DNA of 64,000 nucleotides from an uncultured delta proteobacterium (GTDB lineage Bacteria > Desulfobacterota > Desulfobacteria > Desulfobacterales > UBA2156), in contig CAVTQK010000008.1 in assembly GCA_963736855.1 (NCBI GenBank), forward strand, positions 71,835 to 135,834. Direction: 5' to 3'. The translations under genes were made by a program, and so were the position numbers. The notes below the pieces were generated by a model, which worked only from the letters and a program-made list of their open reading frames with translations, was not told the DNA's origin and ran no database searches. Below, in pieces: positions 11,027-46,215 of this stretch; positions within the stretch are counted from its first letter, which is position 1; every line of letters starts with the position of its first letter.

Positions 11027-11069
11027 TATTTACCATTGAAAAGCAGGCCTGTCAAGGCCGAAAAAAGTA

Positions 11070-11098: not shown

Positions 11099-11108
11099 AA
11101 TATAAAGC

Positions 11109-11126: not shown

Positions 11127-11229
11127 GATTTGGTTATAAACCGGTTTCCAGGATAGTATCGCCTGGAAGACGCTTTTTTGGATTCAGAGATTGGCGGATC
11201 TTTTTTCAGCCATCGGAAAGGAAACATAT

Positions 11230-12012: not shown

Positions 12013-12055
12013 ACAGCGATTTGGGAACACCGCCCTTGAAAGGAAAACGGAGATT

Positions 12056-16389: not shown

Positions 16390-18129
16390 ATGAGTAGAAC
16401 ACACAAAAATCCCGGAAGCATGGTATCGTCCGAGGCGTGGTTGGAGATCATGGACGAATTGAATCTCGGGGCTTTTACTGTCGGCGTCAACCGACAGGTG
16501 ACCTCCATGAACCATACCGCCCAGGCGCTGCTCGGAGTAAAAAACTCGGAGGCCTTGGGCAGAAATTGCAGGGAAGTTTTTATGGGTGTCCCCTGTTTGG
16601 CCAAATGTCCGTTTAGAGGTCCTAACGAACCCGGTACCAGAGAACCCCTCATTCAATTGACAAACGATAATGATATCATCCACTGGACGACACGGATGGC
16701 GACCCCCACTTTCGGTCCCGACGGTAAGGTTGTCGGATGCATGACCATCCTGCAGGATCATTCTCCGATTACGGATCTGATCGATCGCATCCATCACGAA
16801 GAACAGAACACGAAGATCATCCTCGATAACCTGGACGTCGGCATATTCACAGTTGATCGCGGCGGGTATATCACTTTTTTCAATACGGAAGCCGAAAAGA
16901 TCGTCGGCTATAGTCGCCGTGAGGTCTTAGGTCAACCTTTTGCCATGATATTTAAAGACTCGAGGTCCCAGGAAATCGGTTTATTGAACGACACGATTGC
17001 CGATGGGAAAACCCGCAGCAACAGGCGTGGAGAAATGATCACCCGAGACGGTGCCCCCATTCCCGTCCGCATCAATCTGATGGCGCTGATCAACGAAAAA
17101 GGAACGGTCGTCGGGGGGTTGGCCACTTTCCACGATCTCACGTTGGTCCAACAGCTCAAACAAGCCACCCGGCAACATTACACATTCCATGATATGATCG
17201 GTAAAAGCCCTGCGATGGAAAAAATATTTGAAATGGTCAATGTGGTGGCAAAAACCGATGCCACCATTTTGATTGAGGGGGCCACGGGTACCGGGAAGGA
17301 TCTTCTGGCCCGAGTGGTTCATTCCATCAGCCGCAGGGCGGATAAACCCTTTGTCAAGGTCAATTGTGCGGCCATACCGGACAACTTGCTTGAATCGGAA
17401 ATGTTCGGCTATGTCAAAGGGGCCTTTACCGGAGCTGAAAAAGACAAGATCGGACGCTTTCAAGAAGCCGACAACGGAACTATATTCCTGGATGAAATCG
17501 GAGATCTTCCGTTGCCGTTGCAGGCCAAACTGCTTCGGGTATTGGAAGACAAAGAGTTCTATCGATTGGGCAGCCGGCATACGGTCAAAGTCAACGTGCG
17601 CATTATCTCCGCTTCCAATAGGAACTTGCCCCAACTTGTCGAGAAGCGCCTGTTCCGGGAAGACCTTTTTTATCGATTGAACCTGTTTCGCATCGAACTC
17701 CCGGAATTGAAGGATCGCAGGGTGGACCTGCCGTTGCTGATCGGCCATATTTTAAGACACCTGAGTTCCGCCATAGGGATTCGCCCGCCGACAGTCTCCG
17801 AAACAGTGATGGGACTCCTGCTGAACTACAGCTATCCGGGCAACATGCGAGAACTGGAAAATATCCTGGAGCATGCCCTCATTATATGCCGGGAAGAGAC
17901 GATCCAATCGGAACATCTTCCGCAATATCTTCGGTTTTCCCACACCGAGCAGCAGAATGCCTTTCCCGAGAGCCCGAAAAGTGCACCTTTTTCCGAGAAA
18001 AAGGAACGCAGTGAAATTATTTCCATGCTTGAACAATACCACGGGATGCGTTCGGAAGCAGCACGGGCTCTGGGCATCAATCGAACCACATTATGGCGTA
18101 AGATTAAAAAATACGGCATCCGCCCTTAA
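16390..18129 (+). CDS. Sigma54-dependent activator with two PAS domains (no receiver)
   Basis: GATGTGKD, ESEMFGYVKGAFTGA, FLDEIG, PGNMREL, Fis-type HTH. Confidence 0.92.
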   Translation: MSRTHKNPGSMVSSEAWLEIMDELNLGAFTVGVNRQVTSMNHTAQALLGVKNSEALGRNCREVFMGVPCLAKCPFRGPNEPGTREPLIQLTNDNDIIHWTTRMATPTFGPDGKVVGCMTILQDHSPITDLIDRIHHEEQNTKIILDNLDVGIFTVDRGGYITFFNTEAEKIVGYSRREVLGQPFAMIFKDSRSQEIGLLNDTIADGKTRSNRRGEMITRDGAPIPVRINLMALINEKGTVVGGLATFHDLTLVQQLKQATRQHYTFHDMIGKSPAMEKIFEMVNVVAKTDATILIEGATGTGKDLLARVVHSISRRADKPFVKVNCAAIPDNLLESEMFGYVKGAFTGAEKDKIGRFQEADNGTIFLDEIGDLPLPLQAKLLRVLEDKEFYRLGSRHTVKVNVRIISASNRNLPQLVEKRLFREDLFYRLNLFRIELPELKDRRVDLPLLIGHILRHLSSAIGIRPPTVSETVMGLLLNYSYPGNMRELENILEHALIICREETIQSEHLPQYLRFSHTEQQNAFPESPKSAPFSEKKERSEIISMLEQYHGMRSEAARALGINRTTLWRKIKKYGIRP

Positions 18130-18247: not shown

Positions 18248-18281
18248 TTCCATATGTTGCAATAATTTGCAACATATGGAA
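18248..18281. promoter_or_regulatory. Perfect 15-bp inverted repeat, putative sigma54 enhancer (UAS)
   Basis: TTCCATATGTTGCAA-TAAT-TTGCAACATATGGAA about 80-110 bp upstream of the -24 box; extra ATATGTTGCA half-sites at 18155 and 18166. Confidence 0.7.
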
Positions 18282-18359
18282 GTTAGTGAAGCTGCCCCCC
18301 TGATCCATTTTTCATTCAACATCCTGTTATCATATCGGAATTTTCCGATATGGGCTTCC

Positions 18360-18375
18360 TGGCACACTCCATGCT
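18360..18375 (+). promoter_or_regulatory. Sigma54 (-24/-12) promoter of the Hdr-like operon
   Basis: TGGCACACTCCATGCT, GG-N10-GC, directly downstream of the activator gene. Confidence 0.8.
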
Positions 18376-18447: not shown

Positions 18448-18897
18448 TTGACCCCCGAGCCGGTGAAGAAAAAGATCCTCGTCGTCGACGATGAGCTGAA
18501 TATGCGCATTTTTCTTTGCAACCTCTTATGCAACCGGGGTTACGAGGCCATCGATGCCGCGGACTGTGTGGAGGGAATGCAGAAAGCAAAAGCGGAAAAA
18601 CCGGCGCTCATCATTCTTGATGTCATGATGCCCAAAGAGAACGGTATTCAGATGTATCGTGAACTCAATGATGATGAGAAGCTTAAACATATTCCGGTGG
18701 TGATGTTGTCGACAATCGATAGAAAGACATTCTCTTATTACCACAAATTCCGAACTGTAACCCAGGAAAAGGGTTTTCTTGCACCAAGTGCCTATCTGGA
18801 AAAACCGTTCGAGGCCGAAACTCTGATCTCGCTGGTAAACCGCATGATATTTTCAGGGAAAGGCCATTTGGCCGATTCCACGGGTGAGTCAACTTAA
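18448..18897 (+). CDS. Single-domain response regulator
   Basis: VVDDE, LDVMMP, EKPF. Confidence 0.85.
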   Translation: MTPEPVKKKILVVDDELNMRIFLCNLLCNRGYEAIDAADCVEGMQKAKAEKPALIILDVMMPKENGIQMYRELNDDEKLKHIPVVMLSTIDRKTFSYYHKFRTVTQEKGFLAPSAYLEKPFEAETLISLVNRMIFSGKGHLADSTGEST

Positions 18898-18971
18898 AAA
18901 AGGCAAGGGTGTTTAAGCCGAAAGCGGATTTGAGAACGTTGAATCAAAACCGGAAAGAGCGGTCTGAAACG

Positions 18972-21260
18972 ATGAATGAAAACGTCGATGCCAAACTGTA
19001 TCAAGAGGTGGCCCAATTCGGGGCGATGGACATGGAGGTCTGTATGCAGTGCGGCACCTGTAGCGCATCCTGTCCTCTGTCCAGCGGAAATAATCCGTTT
19101 CCACGAAAGATATATCGATATCTTCAGCTTGGAATGAGGGACAAGCTCCTCAAGTCTTCAGAGCCCTGGCTGTGCTATTACTGCGGAGAGTGCAACAAGG
19201 ATTGCCCCCGGGGTGCCGAGCCGGCCGAGACAATGATGGCAACTCGCCGCTGGTTAACCACTCAGTACGACTGGACCGGACTTGCAAAACGGTTATACAT
19301 CTCCGAAAAGTGGGAATTCGGTGCATTGGGTTTTGTTTCGCTCTTGATCATTTTGCTTTTCACTTTTTTCCATGGACCGATAATCACCGATCGCGTTGCA
19401 GTGAATTCCTTTGCGCCCGTCTTATGGATTGAAATCGGCGATTTGGTCATGGCCGCGATTCTGTCGACATTTCTGCTGTCAAACGCCTTCAGAATGTTTC
19501 GATTTATCATGGATGGCACGAAGGTGCCATTCTGGCTCTATATAACGCAAGCCAAAGCCTTTGTCCTGCATTTTTTAACTCAGAAACGCTGGCGGGAATG
19601 CGGAGAGGACCGGAGCCGATGGTTGAAACACTTTCTCCTAGTCAGCGGTTATTTGACCATGATGTCCCTGATCATTGTTTTCATCCGCTGGTTTCAGGTG
19701 GACGACAGCAGCTGGCATTTTACAAGTCTTTTCGGCTACTATGCTACCGGTGTCCTGCTTTATATTACCGTGGAAATGTTTCGCAGCCGTCGTAAAAAAC
19801 AGGAGACGATTCATCGATACTCCCACCTTTCCGACTGGCTTTTTCTGATTCTTCTGTTTTTCACCACATTAACCGGCATCCTGATGCATCTGATCCGCAT
19901 AGCCGGATGGCCCATGGGAACCTATGTCATGTATGTCATCCATCTTGCCGTGGCAGTCCCCATGCTGGTCATTGAAGTCCCATTCGGCAAATGGTCTCAC
20001 CTCTTCTACAGGCCGCTTGCGGTGTTTCTGGCAACCGTCAAGGAGAAGGCGTCCAAAGAGTCGAGCATCGATGTCGAAGATGTGAAGGCCGAGATCGGCG
20101 AAACCTTCCTGACATGCCTGCAATGCGGCACCTGCACAAGCGTCTGCCCGGTGAACCTGATTTCATCGAACAGCCCCCGCCAGATCCTGCGTCAACTCAC
20201 GATGAAAACCGGCACTGAACAATCCGTCGACCAGGCTGTCTGGAGCTGCGTCACCTGTAACGCCTGCGGGGTCAGCTGTCCACGCGGAATACAGATGATC
20301 GACGTAATGAAGGCGGTCAGAGAACTCAACGTCGCCGCCGGAAAAATCCCCAAGGTTTTCAAGGAGCCTCTAAACAGTCTGAAAGAAAACGGCAATCCTT
20401 GGAACGGGCTGCGCGAAAGACGGATGGAATGGGCGGAAGGTGTCAATCTTCCCGCCTTCAGGCCCGAGCATGCGTATTGCCTTTTCACATGCTGTACCAC
20501 GGCATATGATCCTGCGAATCGCAATGCCGGGAAAGCCCTTCCCCGGCTCCTCGAATACGCGGGTGTTTCTTTCGGCACTCTCGGAATAGAAGAAAACTGC
20601 TGCGGCGACCAGTCCCACAAGATGGGAGCGCAAGCAATCTTCTCTGATCTGGCCCGGAAAAATACCGAGCTTTTTTTACATGCCGACGTCCGAAAGATAC
20701 TGACCGTTTCGCCCCATTGCCTGAACGCCTTTAAAAACCTTTACACCGATTTGAGAGGTTTCGTCGAAATCGAGCACTATTCAGAACTCCTGGACCGGCT
20801 CATCGAGGAGGGCCGGTTGAAACCTCTCCTGGAAGTAGCGTCCACCGTCACCTACCATGATCCGTGCTATCTGGGACGTCACAATAGTATCTACGAGGCG
20901 CCTCGCAGGATTTTGCAAAGCATTCCGGGTCTTAAGCTGGTCGAGATGACAAACAACAGAGAGTGCAGCCTGTGCTGCGGGGGTGGAGGCGGCGGGGCAT
21001 GGATAAATTATCCATCTCGTCATAGCCCCGGCGTCTTGAGGGTCAAAGAGGCTCTGGGAACCGGCGCCGAGATGATTGCCACCGCATGCCCCTTTTGCAT
21101 CCGTATGCTCGATAACGCGATACGGGAACTCGGCGTCGCAAAGGAAATTGCCATCTGTGACCTGGCCGAATTGCTGTTACAGTCGGTTGTAGTGAGGGAT
21201 GAAACAACCGTGATGGGACATATCGATTTGGGCATAAACCGGGAGGTCTGTCATGTCTGA
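18972..21260 (+). CDS. Membrane QmoC-like (HdrC ferredoxin plus heme-b transmembrane domain) fused to an HdrD/GlpC-like 2x[4Fe-4S]+CCG domain
   Basis: CMQCGTCSASCP, CYYCGECNKDCP, hydrophobic helices with His (KWSHLFYRP), then CLQCGTC/CVTCNAC, ENCCG, YHDPCYLGR, LCCGGGGG, TACPFC. Confidence 0.8.
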   Translation: MNENVDAKLYQEVAQFGAMDMEVCMQCGTCSASCPLSSGNNPFPRKIYRYLQLGMRDKLLKSSEPWLCYYCGECNKDCPRGAEPAETMMATRRWLTTQYDWTGLAKRLYISEKWEFGALGFVSLLIILLFTFFHGPIITDRVAVNSFAPVLWIEIGDLVMAAILSTFLLSNAFRMFRFIMDGTKVPFWLYITQAKAFVLHFLTQKRWRECGEDRSRWLKHFLLVSGYLTMMSLIIVFIRWFQVDDSSWHFTSLFGYYATGVLLYITVEMFRSRRKKQETIHRYSHLSDWLFLILLFFTTLTGILMHLIRIAGWPMGTYVMYVIHLAVAVPMLVIEVPFGKWSHLFYRPLAVFLATVKEKASKESSIDVEDVKAEIGETFLTCLQCGTCTSVCPVNLISSNSPRQILRQLTMKTGTEQSVDQAVWSCVTCNACGVSCPRGIQMIDVMKAVRELNVAAGKIPKVFKEPLNSLKENGNPWNGLRERRMEWAEGVNLPAFRPEHAYCLFTCCTTAYDPANRNAGKALPRLLEYAGVSFGTLGIEENCCGDQSHKMGAQAIFSDLARKNTELFLHADVRKILTVSPHCLNAFKNLYTDLRGFVEIEHYSELLDRLIEEGRLKPLLEVASTVTYHDPCYLGRHNSIYEAPRRILQSIPGLKLVEMTNNRECSLCCGGGGGGAWINYPSRHSPGVLRVKEALGTGAEMIATACPFCIRMLDNAIRELGVAKEIAICDLAELLLQSVVVRDETTVMGHIDLGINREVCHV

Positions 21261-24200
21261 ACGCATCGGATTTTATATATGCCACTGCGGCATCAATATC
21301 GCTTACCGGGTCAGGGTTCAGGAAGTGGCCGAGTATGTGGCGAAATTGCCGAATGTGGCAATCTCAAGGGATTACCTTTTCATGTGTTCCGATCCCGGCC
21401 AGGAACTCATTGAAAAAGATATTCGAGAGCATCACCTCACCCGCGTTATCGTGGCTTCCTGTTCTCCGCGGATGCATGAAAAAACCTTCCGGGCAGCTTG
21501 CCAGAGGGCGGGGCTCAACCCTTACCGGGCGTTTCATATGGTATGCGTGCGCGAACATGTTTCGTGGGTCACCGAAAGTGAAGACGAAGCCACCGAAAAG
21601 GCCAAAAATCTGGCCAGAGCCGGTATCTTGCGTGTGGTGCATCAAAGCGATTTAACCCCTGCCACATTCCCGGTATGCACCAATACCCTGATTGTGGGAG
21701 GAGGAATCGCCGGCATGCAGGCAGCCCTTGATGTGGCCAAGGCCGGATTTAAAGCCTATCTGGTTGAACGACAACCCACGATCGGCGGGCACATGCTCCA
21801 GTACGACAAGACCTTCCCCACCCTTGACTGCGCGGCGTGTATCGGCACGCCAAAAATGGTCTCCGTGGGTCAGGAATCCCGGATCCGATTGCTGACTTAC
21901 AGCGAAGTTGAAAACGTCAGCGGCTTCATCGGCAACTTCAAGGTAAGCGTCCGACGAAAAGCCCGCTACGTCGAAACGAATTGCACCGGATGCGGCGAGT
22001 GTGAAAAGGCCTGCCCCATCGATTTTCCCAATCTCTGGGATGTGAACACGAAAACCCGGAAGGCAATCTATCGGCCTTTCCCCCAGGCCGTACCGATCAC
22101 CTACTGCATCGATAAATACGACCGCGCTCCCTGTGTTCAGACCTGCCCGGCCGGAACCAACGTGCAAGGTTACGTCGCGCTGATAAAGGCGGGCAAATAC
22201 CGGGAAGCGTTGAGCCTGATCATGGAACACCTGCCCTTGCCCGGAACCCTGGGCCGCGTCTGCCCGGCACCGTGTGAACACGTCTGTCGCAGATCCGAAG
22301 TGGATGAGGCCGTCGCCATCCGCGATCTGAAGCGATTTGCAGCAGACCAGGTGGATCTTCTGGAATTGCCGCTGCCGGATATCCAAGACCGGCCTGAAAA
22401 AGTGGCCGTGATCGGATCCGGTCCGGCCGGCCTCACGGCGGCGCATTACTTGCGGCTGAAAGGCTACCAGATCACCATTTTTGAGGCACTTCCGGTACTG
22501 GGAGGCATGCTCCGTGTGGGCATCCCCGACTACCGGCTTCCTCCGGAAATCCTGGATCGTGAAATCCAAAACACGCTCCGAATGGGAATCCAGACCCAGA
22601 CGAATCAGAAGTTTGGGGTCGATTTCTGTCTCGACGACCTCAGAAAACAGGGATTTAAAGCTATCTTCCTTGGAATCGGCGCCCACCGCAGCCTGAAGCT
22701 GGGCGTTCACGGCGAGGAAGATTTCCAGGGCGTGATGGATGCGGTCGATTTTCTCAGGGAAGTAAATCTGGGCCGCCGGGAACCTCCCGGCAAACGGGCG
22801 GCGATCATCGGCGGGGGCAATGTGGCCGTCGATGCCGCTCGGGCCGCTTTGAGAACCGGTTGTGGACAAGTGGATATCGTCTATCGTCGCAGCAGAGAGG
22901 AGATGCCCGCTTATCTGGAAGAAATCGAAGGAGCCCTCGCCGAGGGTGTGAAAATCCATTTTCTGACAGCGCCGATCTCGATCCGGGGGGAAGGCGGCAG
23001 GGTCGTCGGGTTGGAATGCATCCGGACCGAATTGGGCCCCCCTGATGAAAGCGGGCGGCGGCGTCCTGTACCGGTGAAGGGTTCCGAGTTTATTATCGAA
23101 TCCGATGCGATCATACCTGCCATCGGGCAGCAACCCGACTTTGACTGGCCGGTGGAAAAACAGATCGTGGAACTCACGAGGCGCAAGACGATATCGGTGA
23201 ATCCGCAAACCATGCAGACCAGCATTCCTGATGTATTCGGAGGAGGCGATGCGGTAAGCGGGCCTGCAACGGTGATCGAAGCCGTAGCCGCAGGCCGAAA
23301 GGCGGCAGAAGCAATCCATTCCTATATCATGGGAGAAGATATGGAAAGCTACGCCAAAAAAGCTGCCGCCAAGGAACCTCTCGGCCAAAATTGGAGAGAA
23401 ATCTCCAAAACCACCCTTAAAAAAGAGAAAGCCCGGCTGCCGCATCGTGATGCATCCGAAAGCGCCGCCTCTTTTGCAGAAGTGATGTCGGGCTTTGGTG
23501 AGACGCAGGCTCGAGAGGAAGCGGCCCGCTGTGTCAATTGCGGCGGATGCTGTGAATGCAAGCTCTGCGTGAGCGCCTGTGAGGCCAAGGCGGTCAACCA
23601 CTCCATGAAGGATGAGATAGAAGAAATCGAGGTGGGTTCCATCATCGTCGCCACCGGTTTCGATCCTCTCGATCCGACACCGATCCGGCAATATGGATAT
23701 GGTCAGCACGCCAATGTCTTTACCAATCTGGAATTCGAACGGTTGTCGAACGCGACAGGACCGACAAGGGGGAAACTGCTGAAACGGGATACGAAGGATC
23801 GTTTAAGATTCACCGAGCCCCCGAAAAGCGTGGCGATCCTTCACTGTATCGGAAGCCGTGACAAGAACTACCATGAGTACTGTTCGCGCACCTGCTGTAT
23901 GTATGCGCTCAAATATGCCCATCTTATTAAAGACAAGTGCGGACACGATACCGAAGTCTACAATTTTTATATCGACATGCGCTGTTTCGGCAAAGGATAT
24001 GAGGAATTCTACAAGCGCGTCCAGAGCGAAGGGGTGCGGATGGTCCGCGGCAAAGCCTCCCGGGTAGATGAAAAGGACGGAATGCTGATCGTCACCGCCG
24101 AGGATACGCTTTCCGACAGAATGCTGAAAATCCCCGTGGAGATGGTAATTCTTTGTACCGCGATGGAGGCACGTCCGGATGCAAACGAAGTGGCGCGCGT

Positions 24201-24633
24201 GTTTGGAATCAGCACTGGAAGTGACGGGTTCTTCCAGGAAGAACATCCCAAACTCGAACCGGTTTCCACCCCCACCGCCGGCGTGTTTCTGGCCGGAGCC
24301 TGCCAGGGACCCAAAGATATCCCCGATACGGTTGCCCAGGCCAAAGGAGCCGCTGCCGAAGCCCTCGCGCTTTCCGCTTCCGGAAAAGTATCGGTTTCTC
24401 CGATGGTTTCTTCCATTGATCCCGACATCTGCATCGGATGTCAGATATGCATCGATCTCTGCGCATACACGGCAATCGAGTTCAATCCCTTGAAAGGGAT
24501 CAGCGAAGTAAACGAGGCCGTCTGTAAAGGCTGCGGAAGTTGCGCCGGCTACTGCCCGAGCGGAGCCGCGCAGATCCGGCACTTTACCAGTAAACAGATC
24601 TTTGCGGAAATCGACGGCATCTTGGCCGCATGA
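21253..24633 (+). CDS. HdrA-family flavoprotein with an inserted GltD/NfnB-like NAD(P)H module (HdrL-type)
   Basis: ICHCGINIA, GGGIAG, KTFPTLDC, insert APCVQTCP...GRVCPAPCE...GSGPAG...GGGNVA, CIGSRD...YCSRTCC, C-terminal ferredoxins. Confidence 0.87.
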   Translation: MSERIGFYICHCGINIAYRVRVQEVAEYVAKLPNVAISRDYLFMCSDPGQELIEKDIREHHLTRVIVASCSPRMHEKTFRAACQRAGLNPYRAFHMVCVREHVSWVTESEDEATEKAKNLARAGILRVVHQSDLTPATFPVCTNTLIVGGGIAGMQAALDVAKAGFKAYLVERQPTIGGHMLQYDKTFPTLDCAACIGTPKMVSVGQESRIRLLTYSEVENVSGFIGNFKVSVRRKARYVETNCTGCGECEKACPIDFPNLWDVNTKTRKAIYRPFPQAVPITYCIDKYDRAPCVQTCPAGTNVQGYVALIKAGKYREALSLIMEHLPLPGTLGRVCPAPCEHVCRRSEVDEAVAIRDLKRFAADQVDLLELPLPDIQDRPEKVAVIGSGPAGLTAAHYLRLKGYQITIFEALPVLGGMLRVGIPDYRLPPEILDREIQNTLRMGIQTQTNQKFGVDFCLDDLRKQGFKAIFLGIGAHRSLKLGVHGEEDFQGVMDAVDFLREVNLGRREPPGKRAAIIGGGNVAVDAARAALRTGCGQVDIVYRRSREEMPAYLEEIEGALAEGVKIHFLTAPISIRGEGGRVVGLECIRTELGPPDESGRRRPVPVKGSEFIIESDAIIPAIGQQPDFDWPVEKQIVELTRRKTISVNPQTMQTSIPDVFGGGDAVSGPATVIEAVAAGRKAAEAIHSYIMGEDMESYAKKAAAKEPLGQNWREISKTTLKKEKARLPHRDASESAASFAEVMSGFGETQAREEAARCVNCGGCCECKLCVSACEAKAVNHSMKDEIEEIEVGSIIVATGFDPLDPTPIRQYGYGQHANVFTNLEFERLSNATGPTRGKLLKRDTKDRLRFTEPPKSVAILHCIGSRDKNYHEYCSRTCCMYALKYAHLIKDKCGHDTEVYNFYIDMRCFGKGYEEFYKRVQSEGVRMVRGKASRVDEKDGMLIVTAEDTLSDRMLKIPVEMVILCTAMEARPDANEVARVFGISTGSDGFFQEEHPKLEPVSTPTAGVFLAGACQGPKDIPDTVAQAKGAAAEALALSASGKVSVSPMVSSIDPDICIGCQICIDLCAYTAIEFNPLKGISEVNEAVCKGCGSCAGYCPSGAAQIRHFTSKQIFAEIDGILAA

Positions 24634-24710: not shown

Positions 24711-25133
24711 ATGAGTGAGTTTGAACCGACGATTGTGGCTTTTTTCTGCAACTGGTGTACTTACACAGCCGCGGACCTTGCCGGCACTTCTCGCCTGAGC
24801 TATCCCCATAATATTCGAATCATACGGGTTATGTGTACCGGCATGGTCGATCCCCAGTATATCATTAAAGCGTTTCTGGAGGGGGCGGACGGCGTATTGG
24901 TGAGTGGATGCAATCCAGGGGATTGTCATTACATCAACGGCAATTATAAGGCCCGGAGGCGGATCAAGCTTCTCAAAGAGATTCTACCCCAATTCGGTTT
25001 TGAAAACGAACGGTTGAGATTAACCTGGATCGGTGCCAGCGACGGGGTTCGTCTAGCTGAGATCATCGGGACTTTTGTAACACAAATCAAAGCCCTTGGA
25101 CCGAGTCAGACAAAGCTTAAGATGGCGATTTAA
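24711..25133 (+). CDS. mvhD: MvhD/FlxD-like [2Fe-2S] subunit
   Basis: FFCNWCTYTAADLAG, RVMCTG, GCNPGDCHY. Confidence 0.88.
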   Translation: MSEFEPTIVAFFCNWCTYTAADLAGTSRLSYPHNIRIIRVMCTGMVDPQYIIKAFLEGADGVLVSGCNPGDCHYINGNYKARRRIKLLKEILPQFGFENERLRLTWIGASDGVRLAEIIGTFVTQIKALGPSQTKLKMAI

Positions 25134-25216: not shown

Positions 25217-26359
25217 ATGACCACCATGGCCAAAATCGACCTGAAGGAACAGAATCCTTTGGAAGCCCTGAAGCAGTTCTTCGCAGGAATTCTCAAATTG
25301 AAAGATGTCACGTCTATCCTGGTCCCCCAGCGGCTTCCCACCCGAAACACGATCATGCCGACTCTGGTAACCGATGCCGCCCTGCTGGAAGGCGTTGATC
25401 CCCTTGCGCCGGCCTTCCTGATGAATGCCGCAAGAATCGCTTCCCGGTTGACCCGAAAACCGATGGGCGGAAAAGTGGCGGCGGTGTTGCGCCCCTGCGA
25501 GATACGGGCGTTCATCGAGCTGGTCAAACTGAATCAGGCCCACAGGGAGGAGATTCTTCTCATCAGTACGGATTGCCTGGGCGCATTTCCAAACAAAGAA
25601 TACTTCAAGTTTGCAGCCCAGAACGGAGCAGAAGAAACCCTTCGCTTCTATAAGACCATGCTGGGAGGAAATGCCAGTGAAATGGAAGGATTTCCATTGG
25701 CTCCGGCTTGCAGGGCATGCGAACATCCGGTCTCCGAAAATGCGGACATCCAAATCGGCCTCTACGGCGTCAAGCCCGGCGAATCCATCCTGATCAAGGC
25801 TCAATCCGAAGCCGGGGATGAAATGTTAAAGCAGATGAACCTGTCCGAAACTACTGAACCGACCGGTCGCCAGGCCGCCATTGACACCCTCATCTCCCAA
25901 CGCATCCGTTTCCGAGACGACATGTTCGCCAAAACCCAGGAAGCCATGAATAGCTTCGATAAGATGGGAGCTTATTTTTCAAATTGCGTCAACTGCTACA
26001 ACTGCCGGGTGGCTTGCCCGGTCTGTTATTGCAAGGAATGCGTTTTCGTCACCGACGTATTCAATCATGAACCTTCCCAATATCTTCAATGGGCCGCCCG
26101 AAAAGGGATGATCAAGATGCCCACGGATACCCTGTTTTATCATCTCACCCGACTGGCCCATATGAGTACGGCCTGCGTGGGGTGCGGCCAATGTTCCAAC
26201 GCCTGCCCCAATGACATCCCCGTTATGGAGGTCTTCCGCATGGTGGCCCAGCGCACCCAGCAGGCCTTTGACTATGAAGCCGGGAAGAACCTTGAGGAAA
26301 AGCCGCCTTTATCCATTTTTCTTGCAGATGAGTTTCAAGAGGTTGTGGGTATTTCATAA
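25217..26359 (+). CDS. FdhB/FrhB-like Fe-S protein with C-terminal 4Fe-4S dicluster
   Basis: RPCEIRA, DCLG, ACRAC, CVNCYNCRVACPVCYCKEC, CVGCGQCSNACP. Confidence 0.72.
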   Translation: MTTMAKIDLKEQNPLEALKQFFAGILKLKDVTSILVPQRLPTRNTIMPTLVTDAALLEGVDPLAPAFLMNAARIASRLTRKPMGGKVAAVLRPCEIRAFIELVKLNQAHREEILLISTDCLGAFPNKEYFKFAAQNGAEETLRFYKTMLGGNASEMEGFPLAPACRACEHPVSENADIQIGLYGVKPGESILIKAQSEAGDEMLKQMNLSETTEPTGRQAAIDTLISQRIRFRDDMFAKTQEAMNSFDKMGAYFSNCVNCYNCRVACPVCYCKECVFVTDVFNHEPSQYLQWAARKGMIKMPTDTLFYHLTRLAHMSTACVGCGQCSNACPNDIPVMEVFRMVAQRTQQAFDYEAGKNLEEKPPLSIFLADEFQEVVGIS

Positions 26360-26385: not shown

Positions 26386-27706
26386 ATGCCGCAAGAAGCC
26401 ATTCAATTAACCCGGGAAAGACAAAGCCCCTTTATGGACAAAGTGGAAGCGATCCTTCCCGAAGGAGGAAATCTCAATCTGTGTCTGACTTGCGGGGCCT
26501 GTGTTTCGGGGTGTCCGGCCAGCGGTCTGAGCGGAATGGACCCCCGCAAATTCCTGCGCATGGCCGCCTTGGGGATGGATGAAGAAATCCTGAAGAGCAA
26601 CTGGGTCTGGTTTTGCACCTTGTGCCAGCGCTGCATCTATGTATGTCCGATGAAAATCGATATCCCCCAGTTGGTGTATCAGGCCCGTGCGAGCTGGCCC
26701 AGGGAAACCCGTCCCAAAGGGATTCTCGGCTCCTGCGATATGGCGCTGAAAAACGACAGCTGCAGCGCCATGGGAGCCGCTCCCGAAGATTTCGATTTTG
26801 TCGTCAACGATGTGCTGGAGGAATACCGGGAAGCTCAGCCCGAATTCGCCGAAATGGTGGCACCCATTGATAAGGAAGGAGCGGAGTTTTTCCTCAACCA
26901 AAACTCCCGGGAACCCGTGACGGAGCCGGACGAATTGATTCCGTTATGGAAAATCCTCCATACCGTGGGAGCGGATTGGACCTATGGTTCCAAGGGATGG
27001 GGGGGTGAGAACTATTGCATGTTCCTGGCCGACGATAAGTCCTGGGAACACATCACCCGGACGGCTGCAAACCAAACGGACGCTCTGGGATGCAGGGTCT
27101 TTCTCAACACCGAGTGAGGGCATGTCACCTTCTCGGTCCTGGCAGGACTGAAAAAATTTAACATTCCGCACAATTTTGTCGTTAAAAACATCTATGAATA
27201 TTACGCCAAGTGGATCCGCGAGGGAAAACTCAAGGTCAATTCCGATTGGAACAAGGATCTCAAAATTAAATTCACGGTTCAGGATCCCTGCCAAATCGTT
27301 CGGAAAAGCTACGGGGATCCGATAGCGGAAGACCTTCGGTTGGTCGTAACATCCCTCGTAGGGAGAAGAAAACTTTATCGATATGCAGCCGAATCGATCC
27401 AACAATTACTGCTGCGGCGGAGGCGGCGGCTTTCTTCAATCGGGATATAAGGAAGCCCGGCTGGAATACGGCCTACTAAAAGATCGACAAATACAGGAAA
27501 CCGGTGCGACATACTGTATTGCGGGGTGTCATAATTGTCACGCCCAGATTCACGAACTCAGCGAGCACTATGGCGGAGGGTATCAGGTGGTTCACCTGTG
27601 GACCCTGATTTGCCTCTCCCTCGGTATTTTGGGACCCAACGAACGGGAATATCTCGGGGAAGACCTCAAGGAGGTCCTGGTCTTTCATCCGGAATCCGCA
27701 CACTAG
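26386..27706 (+). CDS. HdrD/DsrK-like Fe-S oxidoreductase, probable selenoprotein (UGA at 27115-27117), with a +1 frameshift near 27361
   Basis: Two ferredoxin motifs, then NTE-TGA-GH (ECGH motif); frame stays open to QDPCQ; continues in frame +1 as GEENFIDMQPNRSNNYCCGGGGG...GCHNC. Confidence 0.8.
27133..27151 (+). promoter_or_regulatory. Putative bacterial SECIS hairpin
   Basis: TCGGTCCT-GGC-AGGACTGA stem-loop, G-containing loop about 24 nt after the in-frame UGA. Confidence 0.65.
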
Positions 27707-27782: not shown

Positions 27783-30700
27783 ATGAACAAAAAAATCGGC
27801 ACGGCAATGGTGGTCGGGGCCGGGATCGGTGGAATCCGGGCCGCTCTGGATCTGGCGGAATTCGGATATGGGGTCACCCTGATCGACCGAGCTCCGCACG
27901 TGGGGGGCATCTTGAGCCAGCTCGATTATCAATTTCCCACCGACCGCTGCGGCATGTGTAAAATGCTCCCCCTCGTCGATCGGGACGCATCCTCCCAATA
28001 TTGTCTGCGGAAAGGCTTTTTCCATGAAAATATTCAGGTTCTGCCTTCCACCGAGTTGATCGGGGTGGAGGGGGAGCCGGGGCATTTTCAGGTGACCCTC
28101 AAGCAAAAACCGAGTTGGGTCGATCCTGTCCTGTGTGTGGGATGCGGACTTTGCACGGAAGTTTGTCCGGTGGAAGTTCCGGATGCCTTCAACGCCGGTT
28201 TGTCCAAAAGAAAAGCTATCTATCTTCCGGTTCCCCATGCTATTCCAAATCCCTTTATCATCGATATGGTCGCATGCACCCGGTGCGGAGAGTGTGAGAA
28301 AGTCTGCCCGACCCATGCCATACGCTTATCGGAACAGGATCGTGAAAAGTTCCGTATCCTGGTTGTAGATGACGAACTGATCGTCCGTGATTCTCTCAAG
28401 GAACTCCTTGAAAATGAAGGCTTTTTCGTCAACATGGCCGCTTCCGGTGCAGAGGCGCTGGATCGTTTATCCGAAGCGCCATACCATCTGATGCTCACCG
28501 ACATCAAGATGCCCGGTATGGACGGAGTTGAACTTTTACAAAAAGTTCGGGAAATTTTCCCGGATATAACGGTGATCATGATGACGGCGTATGCAACCGT
28601 CGAAACCGCTGTGGAAGCGATGAAAATCGGAGCCGTCGACTATCTTGTCAAGCCATTTGAACCCGACACACTCATCCCCATGATTCTCAAGAAATACGAG
28701 GATTTTGAAACCGCCGGCGCCGGTCAGATAGAGGTCGGCGCGATCGTTCTCAGCGGCGGCGTCGCTTATTTTGATCCCCGAAGCGGAAAGAACACCCTGG
28801 GATATGGAATTTATCCGAATGTGATGACGAGTATCGAGTTTGAGAGACTATTCAGCGGCAGCGGACCCAGCCAGGGTAGGCTTGTTCGCTTCGATGGAAA
28901 GCCGATCCGGAAGGTGACGTGGCTTCAATGCGTCGGTTCCCGGGATATTCAGATTAACGCCGACTTTTGCTCCAATATCTGCTGCATGTATGCCATCAAA
29001 GAAGCTCTCGTCGCCCAAAGGCAGGCAAACGGAGATCTGGAAGCAACCATCCTGTACATGGACATGCGGACATTCGACAAATCGTTCCAGCGGTACCGGG
29101 ATACTGCCGAGCAGGTCCATGGCATCCGCTTCATCAGAGGCCGCGCGCATTCCGTCACCCAGGATCGCACCAGCGGTGATCTCGTGATCCGTTATGTGGA
29201 TCCAGGCGGTCAAATATATGATGTCGCCCAGGATGCGGTAATCCTTTCCGTCGGCCAGAGGCCGGCCATCGGATCACAGGCATTGGCCGAGCGGCTGGGA
29301 ATTCAGCTCAATCCCTGGGGCTTTTATAAAAATCCGCCTTTCTCCGCCACTCGAACATCTCGGGAAGGAATTTTTGTGGGAGGCTCTTTTTCCGGGCTTA
29401 AGGATATTTCGGATTCGGTGATTCACGCCTCTGCCGCAGCCCTCTCCGCTTCCCGGATTCTTCACACGTCAGGCGGCAGCTTGTCGCCTCAACCAACGCC
29501 AAGCACCGAAATCCGGAATGTGACCAGGGAATTTCCGCGCCTTCTCTTGACCCTTTGCACATGCAAAGGCGCCATCCTTGACGAAACAGTCAAAGCGGCA
29601 CTCAAGACCCATTTCATGTCCAATCCGAATGTGGCCCAAGTGGAGTATGTGGAACAAGCCTGCACTTCTGAAGGATGGACGGGATTGTCGAAGCTCGTAA
29701 AAGATCTGCGCCCGAACCGGGTTCTCATCGGAGCGTGTCTTCCCCAAGGATACACCCGAAAACTCAGGGAACTGAGCATGGAAACAGGGCTCTCTTCCGC
29801 CTTAATGGAAGTGGTCGATATCGGATCGCCGATATTTTGTGCCAACGATGCTCCGAAGAGAAAAGTATGAGCCCACATTGAAACGGATCCTCGAAACCGG
29901 CATCGCCATTCTCAAAGGCGCCGATCCCACCCCGACGGCGTCGACCCGCATCCAGCAGAGTGCGCTGGTGATCGGCGGTGGAATCGCCGGCATGACCGCA
30001 GCCCTTGCCGTCGCCGATCATGGCTATCCCGTGGATCTGGTAGAACAGGATGCACAGCTCGGCGGAAATCTTCGTTGGATCAAAAAAACCATCGAAGGAT
30101 ACGATACCCATTCGCTGTTGGAGGAAACAATTTCCCGTGTGGAAAAGCATCCGAATATCCGTGTGCACACCGAGTCCCATGTCTTAGAGGCCTTTGGACA
30201 TGCAGGAAGTTTTGTGACTAACATTGAAAACGGCGCGAAGGAGATCACAACGATCACGCACGGCGTTGCGATCCTCGCCACCGGTGGAACTGAAGCTCGA
30301 ACCCAATCCTATGGCTACGGCACATCCGAAATCATCGTGACGCAGAAGGAGTTGGAACTCAAGCTTCACGAAAACCGTATAGACGCTGCAAAATTAAAAT
30401 CAGTGGTGATGATTCAATGCGTCGATTCGAGGGAAGAACCCCGTAACTACTGCAGCCGCGTCTGCTGTGTATCGGCGCTGAAAAACGCGCTCTATCTTAA
30501 GGAAAAGAATCCGACCTGCAAAATCACCATTCTCTATAGGGATCTGATGGCCTACGGCTTCTCCGAAACCTATTATACTCAGGCTCGACGCGCCGACATC
30601 CTCTTCATTCAGTATGACCTGAAAACCAAACCCGCCGTCGTTTCGATGGATGACGGCATCCGAGTCAACGCCCACGAGCCGATTCTCGATCGCCCAATTC

Positions 30701-31200
30701 AAATAGAAGCGGACCTGATCGTTCTGGCGACCGGCATTGTGCCGACGCTCCCGGTGCCCCTCGCTCAGGCTTTCGGGGCCCCGATCGATCCGGACGGCTT
30801 TTTCCAGGAAGCGGAATCGAAATGGCGGCCGGTCGATTCCCTCAAAGAAGGGGTTTTTGCCTGCGGTATCGCCCATTCTCCCCGATCAATCACCGAATCC
30901 ATCGTAACTGCGGAAGCGGCCGCCCAGCGTTCCCTCCGGATCCTGAATCAGAAGAGTATCCCAACAAGCAAGGTGACCGCCATCGTCCGTCATAGCCTCT
31001 GCAGCCTTTGCGAGCGATGCATCGAGGCCTGCCCATACGGCGCTAGAACCCTCGATCTGGATCAAACCCAGGTGCAGGTCAATTCCCTGATGTGCCAGGG
31101 TTGCGGGACGTGTGTTTCGACCTGCCCGAACGGAGCTTCGGTATTGGAGGGATTCCGAAAACAACAGATGTTCGAGGTCATCGATGCGGCGCTCATTTGA
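27783..31200 (+). CDS. Tandem HdrA-like flavoprotein with an internal response-regulator receiver domain; split by a +1 frameshift near 29830-29870
   Basis: GAGIGG...QFPTDRCGMC, ferredoxins, REC (VDDE, TDIKMP, MTAY, KPF), CVGSRD...CSNICC; second ORF 29839-31200 has GGGIAG, CVDSR...CSRVCC and ferredoxins. Confidence 0.8.
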
Positions 31201-31371
31201 AAGGTTGAATCCGCCGGCAGATCTTCTGGAAGGAGAAGGCCGTGATTTGGATGCGGAACCTGCATGACGCTTCTTTCTGTACTTTCATCATTGATGTGAC
31301 TCTCCATGATGTTCGGTGTCTGATTTTTTCATAGGATCCATTTCTCCGAATACAAAACCGGGGATGTGAAA

Positions 31372-33682
31372 ATGTTGACACGACTGAAAAGCATCCGTCA
31401 TAGGCTTGCGGCAAAGCTGATCGTGATGCTGGGAGCAGTCTTCCTCGCAACCTTCACCCTCTGGTCGCACTACAGTCTCAACTACCAGAAAAAGCGATTG
31501 ATGGATTACCATATTGAAAGTGCGGATCGGCTGGCCAATACCATCAAGCTGGGAGCCCACTACTCGATGATGTTCAACAACCGGGAGGAGATCAACCAAA
31601 TTATCAAGAACATCTCCACCCTGCCTGATTTCGAATCAATCCGCATCTATACCAAGAACGGGCAAATCAAGTTTTCCAAAAATCCTTCCGAAATTGACCA
31701 GACCACCAATATCAAGAACGAGGCCTGCATCATCTGCCACAGAAGCGATCCCCCTTCGACGCATCTGGAACTGCCCGAAAGGACACGGGTGTTCGATTCA
31801 GGGAAAGGATATCGCCTTCTTGGGGTCATTAACCCGATTTACAACGAACCGATCTGTGCTGCGGCCGATTGTCACGTTCATTCGGAAAAAGAAAAACTAT
31901 TGGGTGCCATGGATGTGGTGGTTTCGTTGAAAAAAACGGATGAGGAAATTCTGCGTACGGAAAACTATTTTATCGGCCTGGCAAGCTTTGGTTTTTCTCT
32001 TCATTTCCGCTATCAGTTTTCTGTTTATTTTAAGGTTTGTCGCTCGTCCCATCAAGAAACTGATAGACGGCGCCAGACGGATCGGCAAGGGGGAATACAC
32101 CGGAACCATTGAAATCAAACAGATCGATGAAATGAGCGAGCTTGCCAGTGCCTTCAACCATATGGCCAGGGAAATCCTCAAGCATGAAACCGATCTGAAA
32201 ACCAAACGACAAGAATATCAGAACCTGTTCGAAAGCGTTCCGTGCCTGATCACGGTGCAGGATAGAAATTTTAAACTGGTCAACTATAACCGGGAATTCG
32301 CCGACATGTTCAATCCCGAACCCGGTGACTACTGCTATCGGGCCTACAAAGGGCGCAATGAAAAATGCGACGTCTGCCCGGTGGAGCAGTCGTTTCAAGA
32401 TGGTCAACTCCATCACGCGGAAGAGACGGGAATTGGAAAAGACGGAAAAGTCATGCACTGGATCGTCAGAGCATCCCCTATCATGAACGATAAGGGAGAA
32501 ATCATCGCCGCGATGGAGATTTCTCTGGACATCACCGAGAGAAGAAACCTGGAGGTTGAACTTGTCAAGTCGGAAGAAAAATATCATGCTATTTTCAACA
32601 ACATCCCCAACCCGGTGTTTGTTCTGGACGAGGAAAACTTTGAAATCCTGGATGCCAATAAGAGTGTCGAGGCCGTATACGGTTACGAAACTCACGAACT
32701 GATACATAGACCGTTTTTGATTCTGTTTCAGGAAAAGGAGAGGGCTCAATATGCCTTCAAACTGCTCGTCTCCAACGTTTTGGACCGGGTCAGGCATCTC
32801 CACAAATCCGGGAAGACCCTCTATGTGAACATCCGCGTTTCTCCCTCCGAGATATCCGGGAAAAAAGTCTTCCTGGTTACCACCAGCGACGTCACCAAGA
32901 GGCTTGAAGCCGAGCAGCAGCTCATTCACGCAGGGAAAATGGCGACCCTGGGTGAAATGGCCACAGGAATCGCCCACGAGCTCAACCAGCCGCTTTCGGT
33001 GATCAAAACCGTCAGCAGCTTTTTTATCGACAAAATCCGGAAAAAAGAGCCGATCGGCGATGATATTCTCTCCACCTTGCTGATCAAGGTGGACAGCAAT
33101 GTGGACCGGGCATCCCGGATCATCAATCACATGCGCCAATTCGCCCGGAAGTCGGAAATCGAGCTGGAATGGGCTCATGTCAACGAAGTCATTGAAAATG
33201 CCCTGGAGATATTCAGCCAGCAGCTTAAGGTCAAGGGGATTGAAATCGTCTGTCGACTCGATCCTGATTTGCCGAAAATTCACGCAGACCCCGGACGATT
33301 GGAGCAGGTGATGATCAATCTCCTGGTCAACGCCCGCGATGCCATCGAAGAAAAGTGGAATATCCGTGGGCGAAGGCAGGAAAAGGATAATATCGAATTG
33401 ATTTCCCGTCGGGAGAAAGGTTGGGTCATTGTGGAGGTGCGCGATAGCGGCAGCGGAATACCGGAACATCTTCTTGAAAAAATATTCGAACCCTTTTTCA
33501 CCACCAAGGAAGTGGGAAAAGGGACAGGTCTCGGTCTTTCCATCAGTTACGGTATCATTACGGAATGCGGAGGGAAAATCGAAGCCGTGAATATCGACGG
33601 AAACGGAGCCTGCTTCATCATGCGGTTCCCCGTTTCGAAGGCTTCCCAATCGGAAATTCCTCCAACACCAACGGGTGTTTAA
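31372..33682 (+). CDS. Membrane sensor histidine kinase (periplasmic heme-c motifs, HAMP, 2 PAS); +1 frameshift near 31985-31992
   Basis: TM1, CIICH and CAAADCH, TM2/HAMP (PIKKL...[13 protein letters not shown]) in the next frame, [20 protein letters not shown]. Confidence 0.8.
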
Positions 33683-33694: not shown

Positions 33695-34840
33695 GTGACC
33701 CAGGCAGAAGAAAAAACGAGAATACTGCTCGTCGACGATGAAGAAGACATCCGAATCGTTTTGAGCATTGCACTGTCCAGCTCCGGATACGACGTTCTTA
33801 CCGCAAAAGACGGAAATGAGGCGCTCCATGTTTTTGCGGAAACGCATCCACCCATCGTCCTGACCGATATCAAGATGCCCGGCATGATCGACGGCATCGA
33901 ATTGCTTCAGCGAATCAAACGGGAAAACCCGGACGCCGAAGTCGTCATGATCACCGGGCACGGCGACATGGATCTGGCCATTCAAAGCCTGAAAAACGAG
34001 GCGACGGACTTCATCACCAAGCCCATCAATGTGGATGCCCTCAAGGTTTCCTTGAAACGGGTAGAAGAAAAGATCCTCATGAAGAAACAGCTCCGGGAGT
34101 ATACCCAAAAGCTTGAGACCATGATCTTCGAAAAGATGGAGCTTCGGGACCGCCTCTCGTCCCTGGGGTTGATGATCGGATCCATATCCCACGGTATGAA
34201 AGGGCTATTGACCAATATGGATGCCGGTTTATATCTGCTCGATTCCGGCATTTCCAAGAAAAAACCGGATAGATTACAGGAGGGTCTGGAAACGGTCCGG
34301 CAAACCGTCGATCGAATTAAAAAACTGGTCCTGGATATCCTGTTTTACGCCAAAGAAAGAGAGCTGAAAGTCCGATCCGTGAGCATCCATCAGTTTGCGG
34401 AGGATGTAGCAAAGGTGATCGAAAATAAAATCAAGGGGAGCTCCATCGAACTGATCCGCAAGTTCGAGGGGGCACCGAAGGAATTTATGATCGATCCCGA
34501 TTTTTTCCGCACCGCACTGATCAACATCCTTGAAAACGCCGTGGATACCTGTATGGAAGACACAACAAAGCCGGTCCATCAGATCACCTTTGAAATCGAC
34601 GAAAAAGAAGGGGGGTTGGTTGCCAACATCCAGGATAACGGCACAGGGATGGACAATGAAACATTGGAAAAAGCGTTTGATCTATTTTTCTCAACCAAGG
34701 GAACCAAAGGGACCGGCTTCGGGCTCTTCATCACGGACAATATCATCAAGCAACACGGCGGGACCATCAGTGTCAAATCCGCAAAGGGAAAAGGAACTCA
34801 ATTTTGTATCAAAATTCCTTATCCAAATCCGGAACCATGA
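33695..34840 (+). CDS. Hybrid REC-histidine kinase
   Basis: VDDEE, TDIKMP, SISHGMKGLL, DNGTG, FFSTKG, GTGFGL. Confidence 0.88.
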   Translation: MTQAEEKTRILLVDDEEDIRIVLSIALSSSGYDVLTAKDGNEALHVFAETHPPIVLTDIKMPGMIDGIELLQRIKRENPDAEVVMITGHGDMDLAIQSLKNEATDFITKPINVDALKVSLKRVEEKILMKKQLREYTQKLETMIFEKMELRDRLSSLGLMIGSISHGMKGLLTNMDAGLYLLDSGISKKKPDRLQEGLETVRQTVDRIKKLVLDILFYAKERELKVRSVSIHQFAEDVAKVIENKIKGSSIELIRKFEGAPKEFMIDPDFFRTALINILENAVDTCMEDTTKPVHQITFEIDEKEGGLVANIQDNGTGMDNETLEKAFDLFFSTKGTKGTGFGLFITDNIIKQHGGTISVKSAKGKGTQFCIKIPYPNPEP

Positions 34841-44572: not shown

Positions 44573-45553
44573 TCAGGGCTTGGAATGGACATCTCCTCGA
44601 TTCGTCCTTTGAACAGACCGGTCGGGCTGGTGGGGATTCCGTGGGATATTTAGGACCAGGTAGGCAGTGAGAGCAGCGCCCAATAGAATCAGCAAAAGAG
44701 CGAGCCGGCGTCTCGGTTTCTTCCTGTTCGAAGGAAAGACGGCGTGTTTCTTCGTATCCGGTTCCTCGTCTCCGCCGATTTCCGGATCATGCGATGTCCG
44801 TGCTTCTCTTTCATGGACATTCAGAATTACCGTCGTAATGTTGTCGTGCCCGCCCCGCATTCGGGCAAGATCGACCAGTTTTTCGGCGGTTTTGGCCGGC
44901 GGAAAAGCATCGGCGATATCGATCATCTCGCGGTCTTTGACCAGTCCGTGCAAGCCGTCCGAGCATAAAAGGATCGTATCTCCGGGTTTCAGTATAAGGT
45001 GGAACAGATCGACGTCTATTGTTTCACTGATTCCCAAGGCCTGAAGTATGATGTTCCGATCCGGATGGTTCTGGATTTCCTCTTCACTGATTTTTCCTTC
45101 TCTGAAAAGCTTTTGAACCAGCGTCTGGTCCTCAGTGATCTGGACAGGGCTTCCGTTGCGAAACAGATACGCCCGGCTGTCTCCTACCTGGGCGACGTAC
45201 GCTTCGCCGACATTTGCCCATACGGCGGTACATGTGGTTCCCATTCCCTTCAGCGACGGATTCGCTTGGGACATCTCATTCAAGAAACGATGGGTTTCTT
45301 CAACTGCATTCACCAGGGCTTCTCCGGGATTCCCGGAAAGGCCCCTTTCGATATATTCTCGGATCTTTTCCACGCTCGTGGTGCTGGCCTGCCGCCCTCC
45401 CGCATGACCGCCCACCCCGTCCGCCACAACTGCAAGGACCCCGAGCGAGCGGTCCGGGTCCTCGGAATTGAATCGATGGATGATAAAAGCATCTTCGTTC
45501 TCCCTGCGCACACAACCGGTATCTGTTTGCCCCACCGCTTCAATTGCCAGCAT
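44573..45553 (-). CDS. PP2C-family Ser/Thr phosphatase with C-terminal membrane anchor
   Basis: RRENED, VADGVGG, MGTT, VGDSRAY, CSDGL, GGHDNIT. Confidence 0.92.
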   Translation of the reverse strand: MLAIEAVGQTDTGCVRRENEDAFIIHRFNSEDPDRSLGVLAVVADGVGGHAGGRQASTTSVEKIREYIERGLSGNPGEALVNAVEETHRFLNEMSQANPSLKGMGTTCTAVWANVGEAYVAQVGDSRAYLFRNGSPVQITEDQTLVQKLFREGKISEEEIQNHPDRNIILQALGISETIDVDLFHLILKPGDTILLCSDGLHGLVKDREMIDIADAFPPAKTAEKLVDLARMRGGHDNITTVILNVHEREARTSHDPEIGGDEEPDTKKHAVFPSNRKKPRRRLALLLILLGAALTAYLVLNIPRNPHQPDRSVQRTNRGDVHSKP

Positions 45554-45585
45554 CAAAAAGCCGCTCCGCTCGCAAAAAGACCGAC

Positions 45586-46206: not shown

Positions 46207-46215
46207 AAAAGGGTT

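Follow-up and report, generated by a model that had tools for sequence, protein, structure and literature searches.

In methanogens, HdrA (5ODC, 7BKB/7BKD and 8RVU/8RVY) is a homodimer of chains of about 650 residues without a receiver domain (REC). Lys409 and Glu356 have been proposed as the marks of its bifurcating flavins (PMC12054007), Lys409 being likewise treated in PMC13514486, and its inserted ferredoxin is taken as the low-potential exit of methanogen Hdr (PMC13518236). In BamE of the class II benzoyl-CoA reductase from Geobacter metallireducens (bioRxiv 10.64898/2026.04.10.717634) and in type II HdrA (PMC12054007), two HdrA units are fused into one chain, of which the N-terminal thioredoxin-reductase half carries a Lys and a CxxC by the flavin and the second half lacks the branching apparatus; the available parts of these descriptions contain no REC. 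How the two electron branches of HdrA are gated was called unresolved in the 2026 cryo-electron microscopy preprint on BamE. Here we describe an HdrA-type gene (positions 27783–31200, + strand) in a 64,000-nucleotide stretch (hereafter the window) of an uncultured delta proteobacterium (contig CAVTQK010000008.1, positions 71,835–135,834), whose product is, according to a predicted model, likewise a pair of HdrA units joined into a single chain, each with its thioredoxin-reductase domain, and holds within its fold a complete REC that is predicted to accept phosphate from a kinase.

The likeness to BamE and type II HdrA is drawn from their descriptions and not from an alignment with BamE. The window protein differs from BamE in that its second half has a Lys at the aligned position and in that its partners are HdrL, MvhD, an FdhB-like protein, HdrD and a membrane subunit rather than a tungsten enzyme; no tungsten BamBC or BamGHI family was found among the 43 window proteins scanned. 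The same gene set occurs in locus VIII of Desulfobacterium autotrophicum HRM2 (hdrL/mvhD/fdhB/hdrA4/hdrD2; PMC2702500). In the key to Fig. S3a of that 2009 paper, a 'response regulator receiver domaine' is named as one of the Hdr domains; the available text of the paper neither mentions such a domain nor gives it a role. HRM2 HdrA4 itself was not found by name among our homologue searches. Sfum_0819–0824 of Syntrophobacter fumaroxidans (HdrL, MvhD, FdhB-like and HdrA(BC)), likened here by gene set, is a cluster reported to be abundant with sulfate and proposed to confurcate (PMC5947623). RECs on metabolic enzymes are known, among them REC-thioredoxin reductase and REC-pyruvate phosphate dikinase, which are thought, as here, to be signal-controlled (PMC5847659), and pseudo-receivers are also known (PMC4395418). 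The present protein differs from such enzymatic-output regulators in that its REC lies inside the fold of a multi-subunit, predictedly bifurcating Fe–S flavoprotein. To our knowledge, the known REC–enzyme cases are terminal fusions. A full-text literature search, in the texts open to it, found no paper discussing a REC–HdrA fusion. Public annotation and the 2009 figure key already show the architecture; what is new here is the kinase assignment and the degenerate lineage described below.

The REC was matched by profile PF00072 with 111.1 bits (cut-off 30.2) over residues 192–301 of the frame starting at 27783 (profile positions 1–110 of 111; nucleotides 28356–28685) and was delimited to 28356–28709 (+) from the profile, motifs, conservation and the AlphaFold model of P0002. 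This protein, an intact same-genus orthologue of 1138 residues that is 85–96% identical by segment to the window gene over the 5' part, was used for the protein-level work because the frame of the window gene is broken, as detailed later. The acidic pair D196/D197 (28368), the phospho-Asp D240 (28500), T268 (28584), Y287 and K290 (28650) are all in place, and the motifs VVDDE, TDIKMP, MTAY and KPF start at 28362, 28497, 28581 and 28650, respectively. The sequence-only reading of the window had claimed both this full set (acidic pocket, phospho-Asp, switch Thr and Lys) and a complete REC in frame directly after the two-cluster ferredoxin insert; the Pfam match and the P0002 model bear it out. 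In the model, the (beta/alpha)5 fold is recovered, residues 188–312 resembling the CheY-like structure 3crn (Z 20.3, root-mean-square deviation (rmsd) 1.8, 123 aligned residues). The domain sits between the last cluster of the inserted ferredoxin and the strand returning to the FAD core, and its helix 5 is predicted to continue into that strand. The same reading had compared this position with that of the NAD(P)H module in the neighbouring HdrL; both modules do lie in the ferredoxin insert region, but that of HdrL separates the cluster motifs of its insert, and the REC comes only after an insert that is complete. An origin of the REC by misassembly is ruled out by its presence at the same place in relatives, including 112 of the 120 best homologues, which are full-length (at least 1050 residues), and by contigs of public sequencing runs.

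The rest of the chain can be assigned to two HdrA halves. The 5' part (27783–29870, +), delimited by profiles, alignment and the P0002 model, encodes in order FAD/thioredoxin-reductase half 1 with a CxxC (residues 56/59), the inserted 2x[4Fe-4S] ferredoxin domain (28113–28334, +; profiles, motifs and alignment), the REC, the [4Fe-4S] cysteines and an HdrA N-terminal-type domain, and the 3' part of the split gene (29839–31200, +; profiles and the P0002 model) encodes FAD/thioredoxin-reductase half 2 and a C-terminal ferredoxin domain. In the model (mean pLDDT 80.3), residues 5–564 match the HdrA core with inserted ferredoxin of 8rwn (Z 26.9, rmsd 3.1, 404 aligned), and residues 583–1138 match the whole HdrA chain of 7bkd (Z 29.5, rmsd 3.8, 552 aligned); the folds of both halves are thus shared with methanogen HdrA. 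Half 1 retains the four cluster cysteines and the CxxC, and its Glu354 and Lys406 (28842–29000, +), conserved among relatives, align with Glu356 and Lys409 of 5odc_A. Half 2, on which the HdrA N- and C-terminal domains sit, lacks the CxxC and the inserted ferredoxin; its Glu position is variable, and its Lys900 is mostly kept. Half 1 is predicted from these residues to be of the electron-bifurcating type. P0002 scores 520–656 bits against the methanogen HdrA equivalogs NF041778, NF041891 and NF040770, far under their cut-offs of 1100–1400, and the HdrA–REC protein has no GltD-type NAD(P)H insert, which is found in the neighbour at 21253.

From these features and the kinases encoded nearby, we infer, each step resting on sequence comparison, a cascade in which the membrane kinase at 31366 acts through the hybrid kinase at 14747 on Asp240 of HdrA and so gates the low-potential exit of half 1, itself predicted to bifurcate, a reading that we hold to be somewhat better than an even chance. 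The membrane kinase would sense a periplasmic redox signal via c-type haem motifs and phosphorylate the RECs of the 33695 and 14747 hybrids, whose helix-1 signature is the same; the latter hybrid, activated through its own REC, would then hand phosphate to Asp240. The ensuing shift of helix 4, strand 5 and helix 5 would move the inserted ferredoxin relative to the flavin/CxxC site or, alternatively, would open or shut a ferredoxin docking site; phosphate may switch the enzyme either on or off. In the complex, NAD(P)H at HdrL is most likely coupled to ferredoxin and to an acceptor of higher potential (HdrD, quinone via the membrane subunit). If the wider form of the reading given below is true, this would be a first case of two-component phosphorylation on a bifurcating enzyme. 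Phosphorylation acting as a switch on the low-potential exit would mean that cells tune bifurcation within seconds, and would offer a reversible handle to trap states.

The conservation of the REC is consistent with such a role. PF00072 is present in all 120 best homologues (of 5594 matches), a set selected on the REC-containing region, and D196, D197, D240, T268, Y287 and K290 are kept in all 112 full-length ones. Because of that selection, a second sample was taken with a REC-less query, P0242, and comprised 60 loci (40 best new and 20 lower-ranked) plus G243. Two of these loci were REC-less and the other 59 bear the insert, with D240 in 57/57, T268 in 58/58 and K290 in 59/59 of the positions covered. 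The sequence-only reading had proposed to test whether the Asp of the REC is conserved; it is, also in loci chosen without the REC sequence. Column conservation is 0.80 for the REC, compared with 0.55–0.76 for flanking catalytic segments and 0.84 for the first 110 residues. In a codon comparison with G005, the REC showed 23 synonymous and 7 non-synonymous differences and the flanks 37 and 35, the non-synonymous rate per codon being equal, so that no weight is put on the comparison. When a phylum sample of 400 genomes was queried with a segment free of the REC, 12 other genomes matched; 8 have an intact REC, and the remaining 4 are one family, and all 3 proteins retrieved from it are REC-less. 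An order-wide search with P0242 is unfit for counting REC-positive genomes, paralogues also passing it. The family (751 clusters at E<=1e-80) is common and present in cultured strains, namely Desulfonema magnum (QTA93966.1) and Desulfobacula toluolica (HdlA5, P0335; the latter with an intact REC), and many members are named 'response regulator' in databases, which hides the family from Hdr surveys. D. multivorans HdrA2 (1007 residues) is probably REC-less.

The type of the REC bears on its output. When the HdrA–REC protein was scanned for parts of NtrC-type regulators, the REC alone matched, the AAA+ sigma-54 and helix-turn-helix (HTH) domains being absent, and the sequence of the REC assigns it an NtrC/AtoC-type origin. 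RECs of the NtrC/AtoC type act by oligomerisation. It is conceivable, though we consider it unlikely, that the REC is phosphorylated but that the output is assembly or location, through REC–REC or REC–partner contacts that would join HdrL/MvhD/FdhB or the membrane subunit to HdrA while the chemistry of the assembled complex is unchanged. Besides the type of the REC, the nearly invariant face of helix 4 and strand 5, the stand-alone REC that opens the operon, the two further RECs beside the gene of REC-less orthologues, and P0152, in which three RECs are joined to the HdrA N-terminus as an independent REC–HdrA fusion, all speak for contacts of this kind; yet a docking tag needs no internal insertion of one length at the junction of ferredoxin and core, and the degenerate lineage retains the same partners.

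Three kinases in the window had been named by the sequence-only reading as possible phosphate donors. That at 14747–16339 (+) is a hybrid with REC-PAS-HisKA-HATPase order (His at 15647), assigned from profiles, DHp comparison and co-distribution. The second (named from 31372; 31366–33682, +; profiles and motifs) is a membrane sensor kinase with periplasmic CxxCH and CX4-5CH motifs, HAMP, two PAS, HisKA and HATPase domains, and the third (33695–34840, +; profiles and REC signature) is a REC-HisKA-HATPase hybrid that is likely a substrate of the sensor kinase. It is the first helix of the REC, together with the DHp helix, that sets kinase specificity. We compared the three with the kinases that adjoin the regulators most similar to HdrA in their REC. 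In 62 of 63 regulator–kinase pairs, the adjacent DHp was closest to 14747 among the three candidates. Moreover, 48 of the 49 regulators with the helix-1 signature E-x3-R-x-S-[LFM]-x2-W adjoin a kinase DHp that scores at least 53 bits to 14747; regulators without it have a 14747-like neighbour in only 7/26 cases, most of them near-variants, and in 0/11 own-genome pairs. Receivers of the 'EEDIR.V' type adjoin 31366-type DHp domains (92–128 bits), and the RECs of 33695 and of 14747 and its orthologues are of this type. Of the three kinases, therefore, the helix-1 signature of the HdrA REC favours 14747 as the direct donor, and the membrane kinase would be an upstream sensor rather than the donor.

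Distribution among genomes points in the same direction. In 80 genomes (15 further intact-REC but fragmented ones being left out), a 14747 homologue at E<=1e-90 was present in 47/52 with an intact REC, in 0/21 with a degenerate REC and in 0/7 REC-less ones. The 47 include five genomes from other orders, whose homologue is 52–62% identical, and the five intact-REC genomes missing a homologue all hold a kinase with a 14747-type DHp. The occurrence of an intact switch with the kinase and a decayed one without it makes it likely that the kinase controls the enzyme directly, not only its genes. Transcription has a switch of its own, since a sigma-54-type promoter and a PAS-type activator without a REC precede the operon; no DNA-binding regulator with a REC was found in a scan of the locus, and within the cluster RECs occur in two kinases, one stand-alone protein and HdrA only. 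The sensor kinase at 31366 adjoins 34/43 intact loci (those with at least 8 kb downstream) and 0/21 degenerate loci, and both haem-type motifs are present in 34/37 of such neighbours, the frames of the other three lacking the N-terminal part. Synteny, which had been put forward as a means of linking kinases to the REC, thus holds for 31366 as a neighbour of most such intact loci. As the direct donor, 31366 itself is weakened as a candidate: its DHp class pairs with a different REC signature, full-length kinases of its type persist elsewhere in 11/21 degenerate genomes, and two intact-REC genomes (G791 and G033) gave no match to it at E<=1e-60.

The same subtype of REC was found in other proteins. 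P0285 has it inserted between two universal-stress domains, as does the product of L032:10652–11986 (-), whose REC is 72% identical and whose gene lies beside one for a 14747-type kinase, and P0154, a hybrid kinase, has it within its ATPase domain. These insertions agree with a decidedly less probable reversal of the flow of information, in which the REC would drain phosphate or modulate a kinase, its accessibility being set by the redox conformation of the enzyme, and the Hdr complex would thereby report its state to the kinases; HdrA complexes do shift domains with redox state (bioRxiv 10.64898/2026.04.10.717634; PMC13518236). Such a sink has no evident competing substrate, however, none of the other REC matches in the window genome (71 in all) carrying the helix-1 signature in register, and a REC is likewise missing from the operon's sigma-54 activator.

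Natural variants that bear on the gating reading occur in a lineage with a decayed insert. Among 50% representatives, a search identified P0174 and P0191 as such, their clusters being named Desulfovibrio/Desulfovibrionales. An HdrA of the REC family is carried by 68 of 301 Desulfovibrionales genomes; in the 21 loci examined, the insert is 137–152 residues long, D197 is kept in none, T268 in 2, D240 in 12 and K290 in 11, and the full phospho-site in 0/21. In a FastTree tree of the core without the insert, weakly supported at some deep nodes, REC-less operon orthologues branch first, all proteins with the insert group together (support 0.996), those with a degenerate REC are a single clade within this group, and P0242 lies among intact proteins as a case of clean loss of the REC. 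The tree thus implies one gain of the REC, one decay and at least one deletion. In the degenerate lineage (L161–L180), the HdrL orthologue matches at both ends only, lacking the NAD(P)H insert, so that electron input differs there. At the loci of REC-less orthologues (L142–L147; G064, G104 and G139), hdrD is directly followed by two genes for stand-alone RECs. Loci of all three kinds, intact, degenerate and REC-less, share the operon HdrL-MvhD-FdhB-like-(HdrD)-HdrA. If the wider reading given below is true, these would be natural on/off and deletion variants for testing conformational gating; the intact, degenerate and REC-less versions, with a named candidate kinase, make gating directly testable.

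Several observations weigh against gating by phosphorylation or soften the evidence for it. The insert is of full length without the phospho-site in all 21 degenerate loci, and its survival throughout a lineage indicates that it also has a phosphate-independent role; helix 5 is better conserved there (0.71) than in intact proteins (0.59), a sign that this end may make a mechanical contact. The enzyme of P0242, having cleanly lost the REC, needs no phosphorylation. Because the degenerate genomes form one clade, their contrast with the intact ones counts as one event. The kinase and HdrA are usually in one cluster and may just be co-inherited, a DHp-only query also matches 5/7 REC-less, 2/21 degenerate and 4/18 background genomes, and the persistence of 31366-type kinases in degenerate genomes loosens the tie to the sensor. 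The regulators of the signature test are one related family, kin that are not independent, and the window REC has Leu for the signature Trp, which is present in 51/56 of those covered. In 53 genome pairs, no covariation of the kinase DHp with helix 1 of the REC held up against the number of columns compared. The P0002 model gives no domain contacts, residues 46–73 and 132–155 being of low confidence, and HdlA5BC was reported as undetected in Desulfobacula toluolica proteomes (PMC5109826).

The same degenerate loci would fit a purely structural insert, one that serves as a spacer or blocks the ferredoxin domain sterically and is unphosphorylated in the cell, as would the prediction that the GltD insert in the same region blocks ferredoxin access (PMC12054007). 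We regard this as improbable: a purely structural REC drifts, as that of the degenerate lineage does, whereas the intact lineage retains all catalytic and kinase-contact residues at 50–60% overall identity. The claim of the sequence-only reading that phosphorylation could switch electron flow is accordingly supported in part, by the invariant phospho-residues, the bifurcation marks and the absence of one kinase where the phospho-site is lost, and is qualified by the survival of the insert in a whole lineage without its phospho-site. More tentatively, and with a little less than even confidence, the gating reading may be widened to one in which the haem-sensing 31366–14747 cascade on an NtrC-derived REC gates bifurcation, the class of the kinase tags a small post-translational regulon and the kinase-less Desulfovibrionales froze a pseudo-receiver; with the same reserve, the regulon would comprise HdrA, the protein with the REC between universal-stress domains and the kinase with an internal REC.

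In this assembly, 27783–31200 is not the single open frame that it had been taken for. It consists of two frames, 27783–29870 (695 residues) and, in another frame, 29839–31200, the gene being split by one extra base near 29858 (29855–29858, +; located by comparison with public-run contigs and same-genus genomes); intact relatives have about 1140 residues. Contigs of public runs X1 (about 98–99% alike) and X4 and two same-genus genomes have one base fewer there. The hdrD gene and the sensor kinase frame each contain a further extra base, near 27360 and 31983, respectively, which the X1 contig likewise lacks, and all three are one G after A or AA in comparison with same-genus genomes. These breaks are more likely an assembly error, to judge from the sequences compared. 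They fall within 4.6 kb in three consecutive genes, while no break appears when the other operon genes and the 14 stop-free same-genus open reading frames of L160 are mapped, so that a real, recent lesion is conceivable, the family being functional and hdrD, hdrA-REC and the sensor kinase being truly frameshifted in this strain. We think such a pseudogene allele rather unlikely, since all three breaks are alike, with no nonsense codon or other decay, and the closely similar X1 contig is free of them.

The operon is preceded by a gene for a PAS-AAA-HTH sigma-54 activator without a REC (16390–18129, +; profiles) and by a TGTTGCA/TGCAACA palindrome with a sigma-54-type promoter (18250–18372, +; motif search), whose GG-N10-GC element lies at about 18358–18372; palindrome and promoter both recur in relatives, the promoter motif in 17/30 related loci. 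The first gene (18448–18897, +; profiles) encodes the stand-alone REC, with its best match to the DVU0259/DivK family (89.5 bits, under the cut-off of 160). Such a REC opens the operon in many loci, and 33695 is a candidate kinase for that of the window. Next, all on the + strand and assigned by profiles, are genes for a membrane QmoC/HdrF-type protein with C-terminal CCG domains (18909–21260), HdrL, an HdrA with the GltD-type NAD(P)H module in its ferredoxin insert (21253–24633), the MvhD [2Fe-2S] adaptor (24711–25133), the FdhB/FrhB-like Fe–S protein (25217–26359) and an HdrD-type (HdrC+B) protein (26386–27706). The hdrD gene has an in-frame TGA at 27115–27117 in an E-x-G-H motif; TGA is found there in 36/36 distinct copies, the genome has a tRNA-Sec, and the codon is, by sequence, likely read as selenocysteine.

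Further from the operon, 5' of the kinase gene, positions 2928–13207 encode an acyl-CoA dehydrogenase, a 3-hydroxyacyl-CoA dehydrogenase, a thiolase, a fused B12 mutase/MeaB and an enoyl-CoA hydratase, which are a possible source of NADH. A cluster at 44573–51255 (-) and 57833–58738 (-) encodes a PP2C phosphatase, FHA proteins, a Ser/Thr kinase, and trypsin-FHA and cyclase-FHA proteins. Elsewhere in the genome (G000 C15:82937–86346), a paralogous pair of a haem-type kinase and a REC–kinase hybrid is encoded, and an element of about 90–200 nucleotides at L160:4566–4776 has dozens of genome copies at 92–100% identity.

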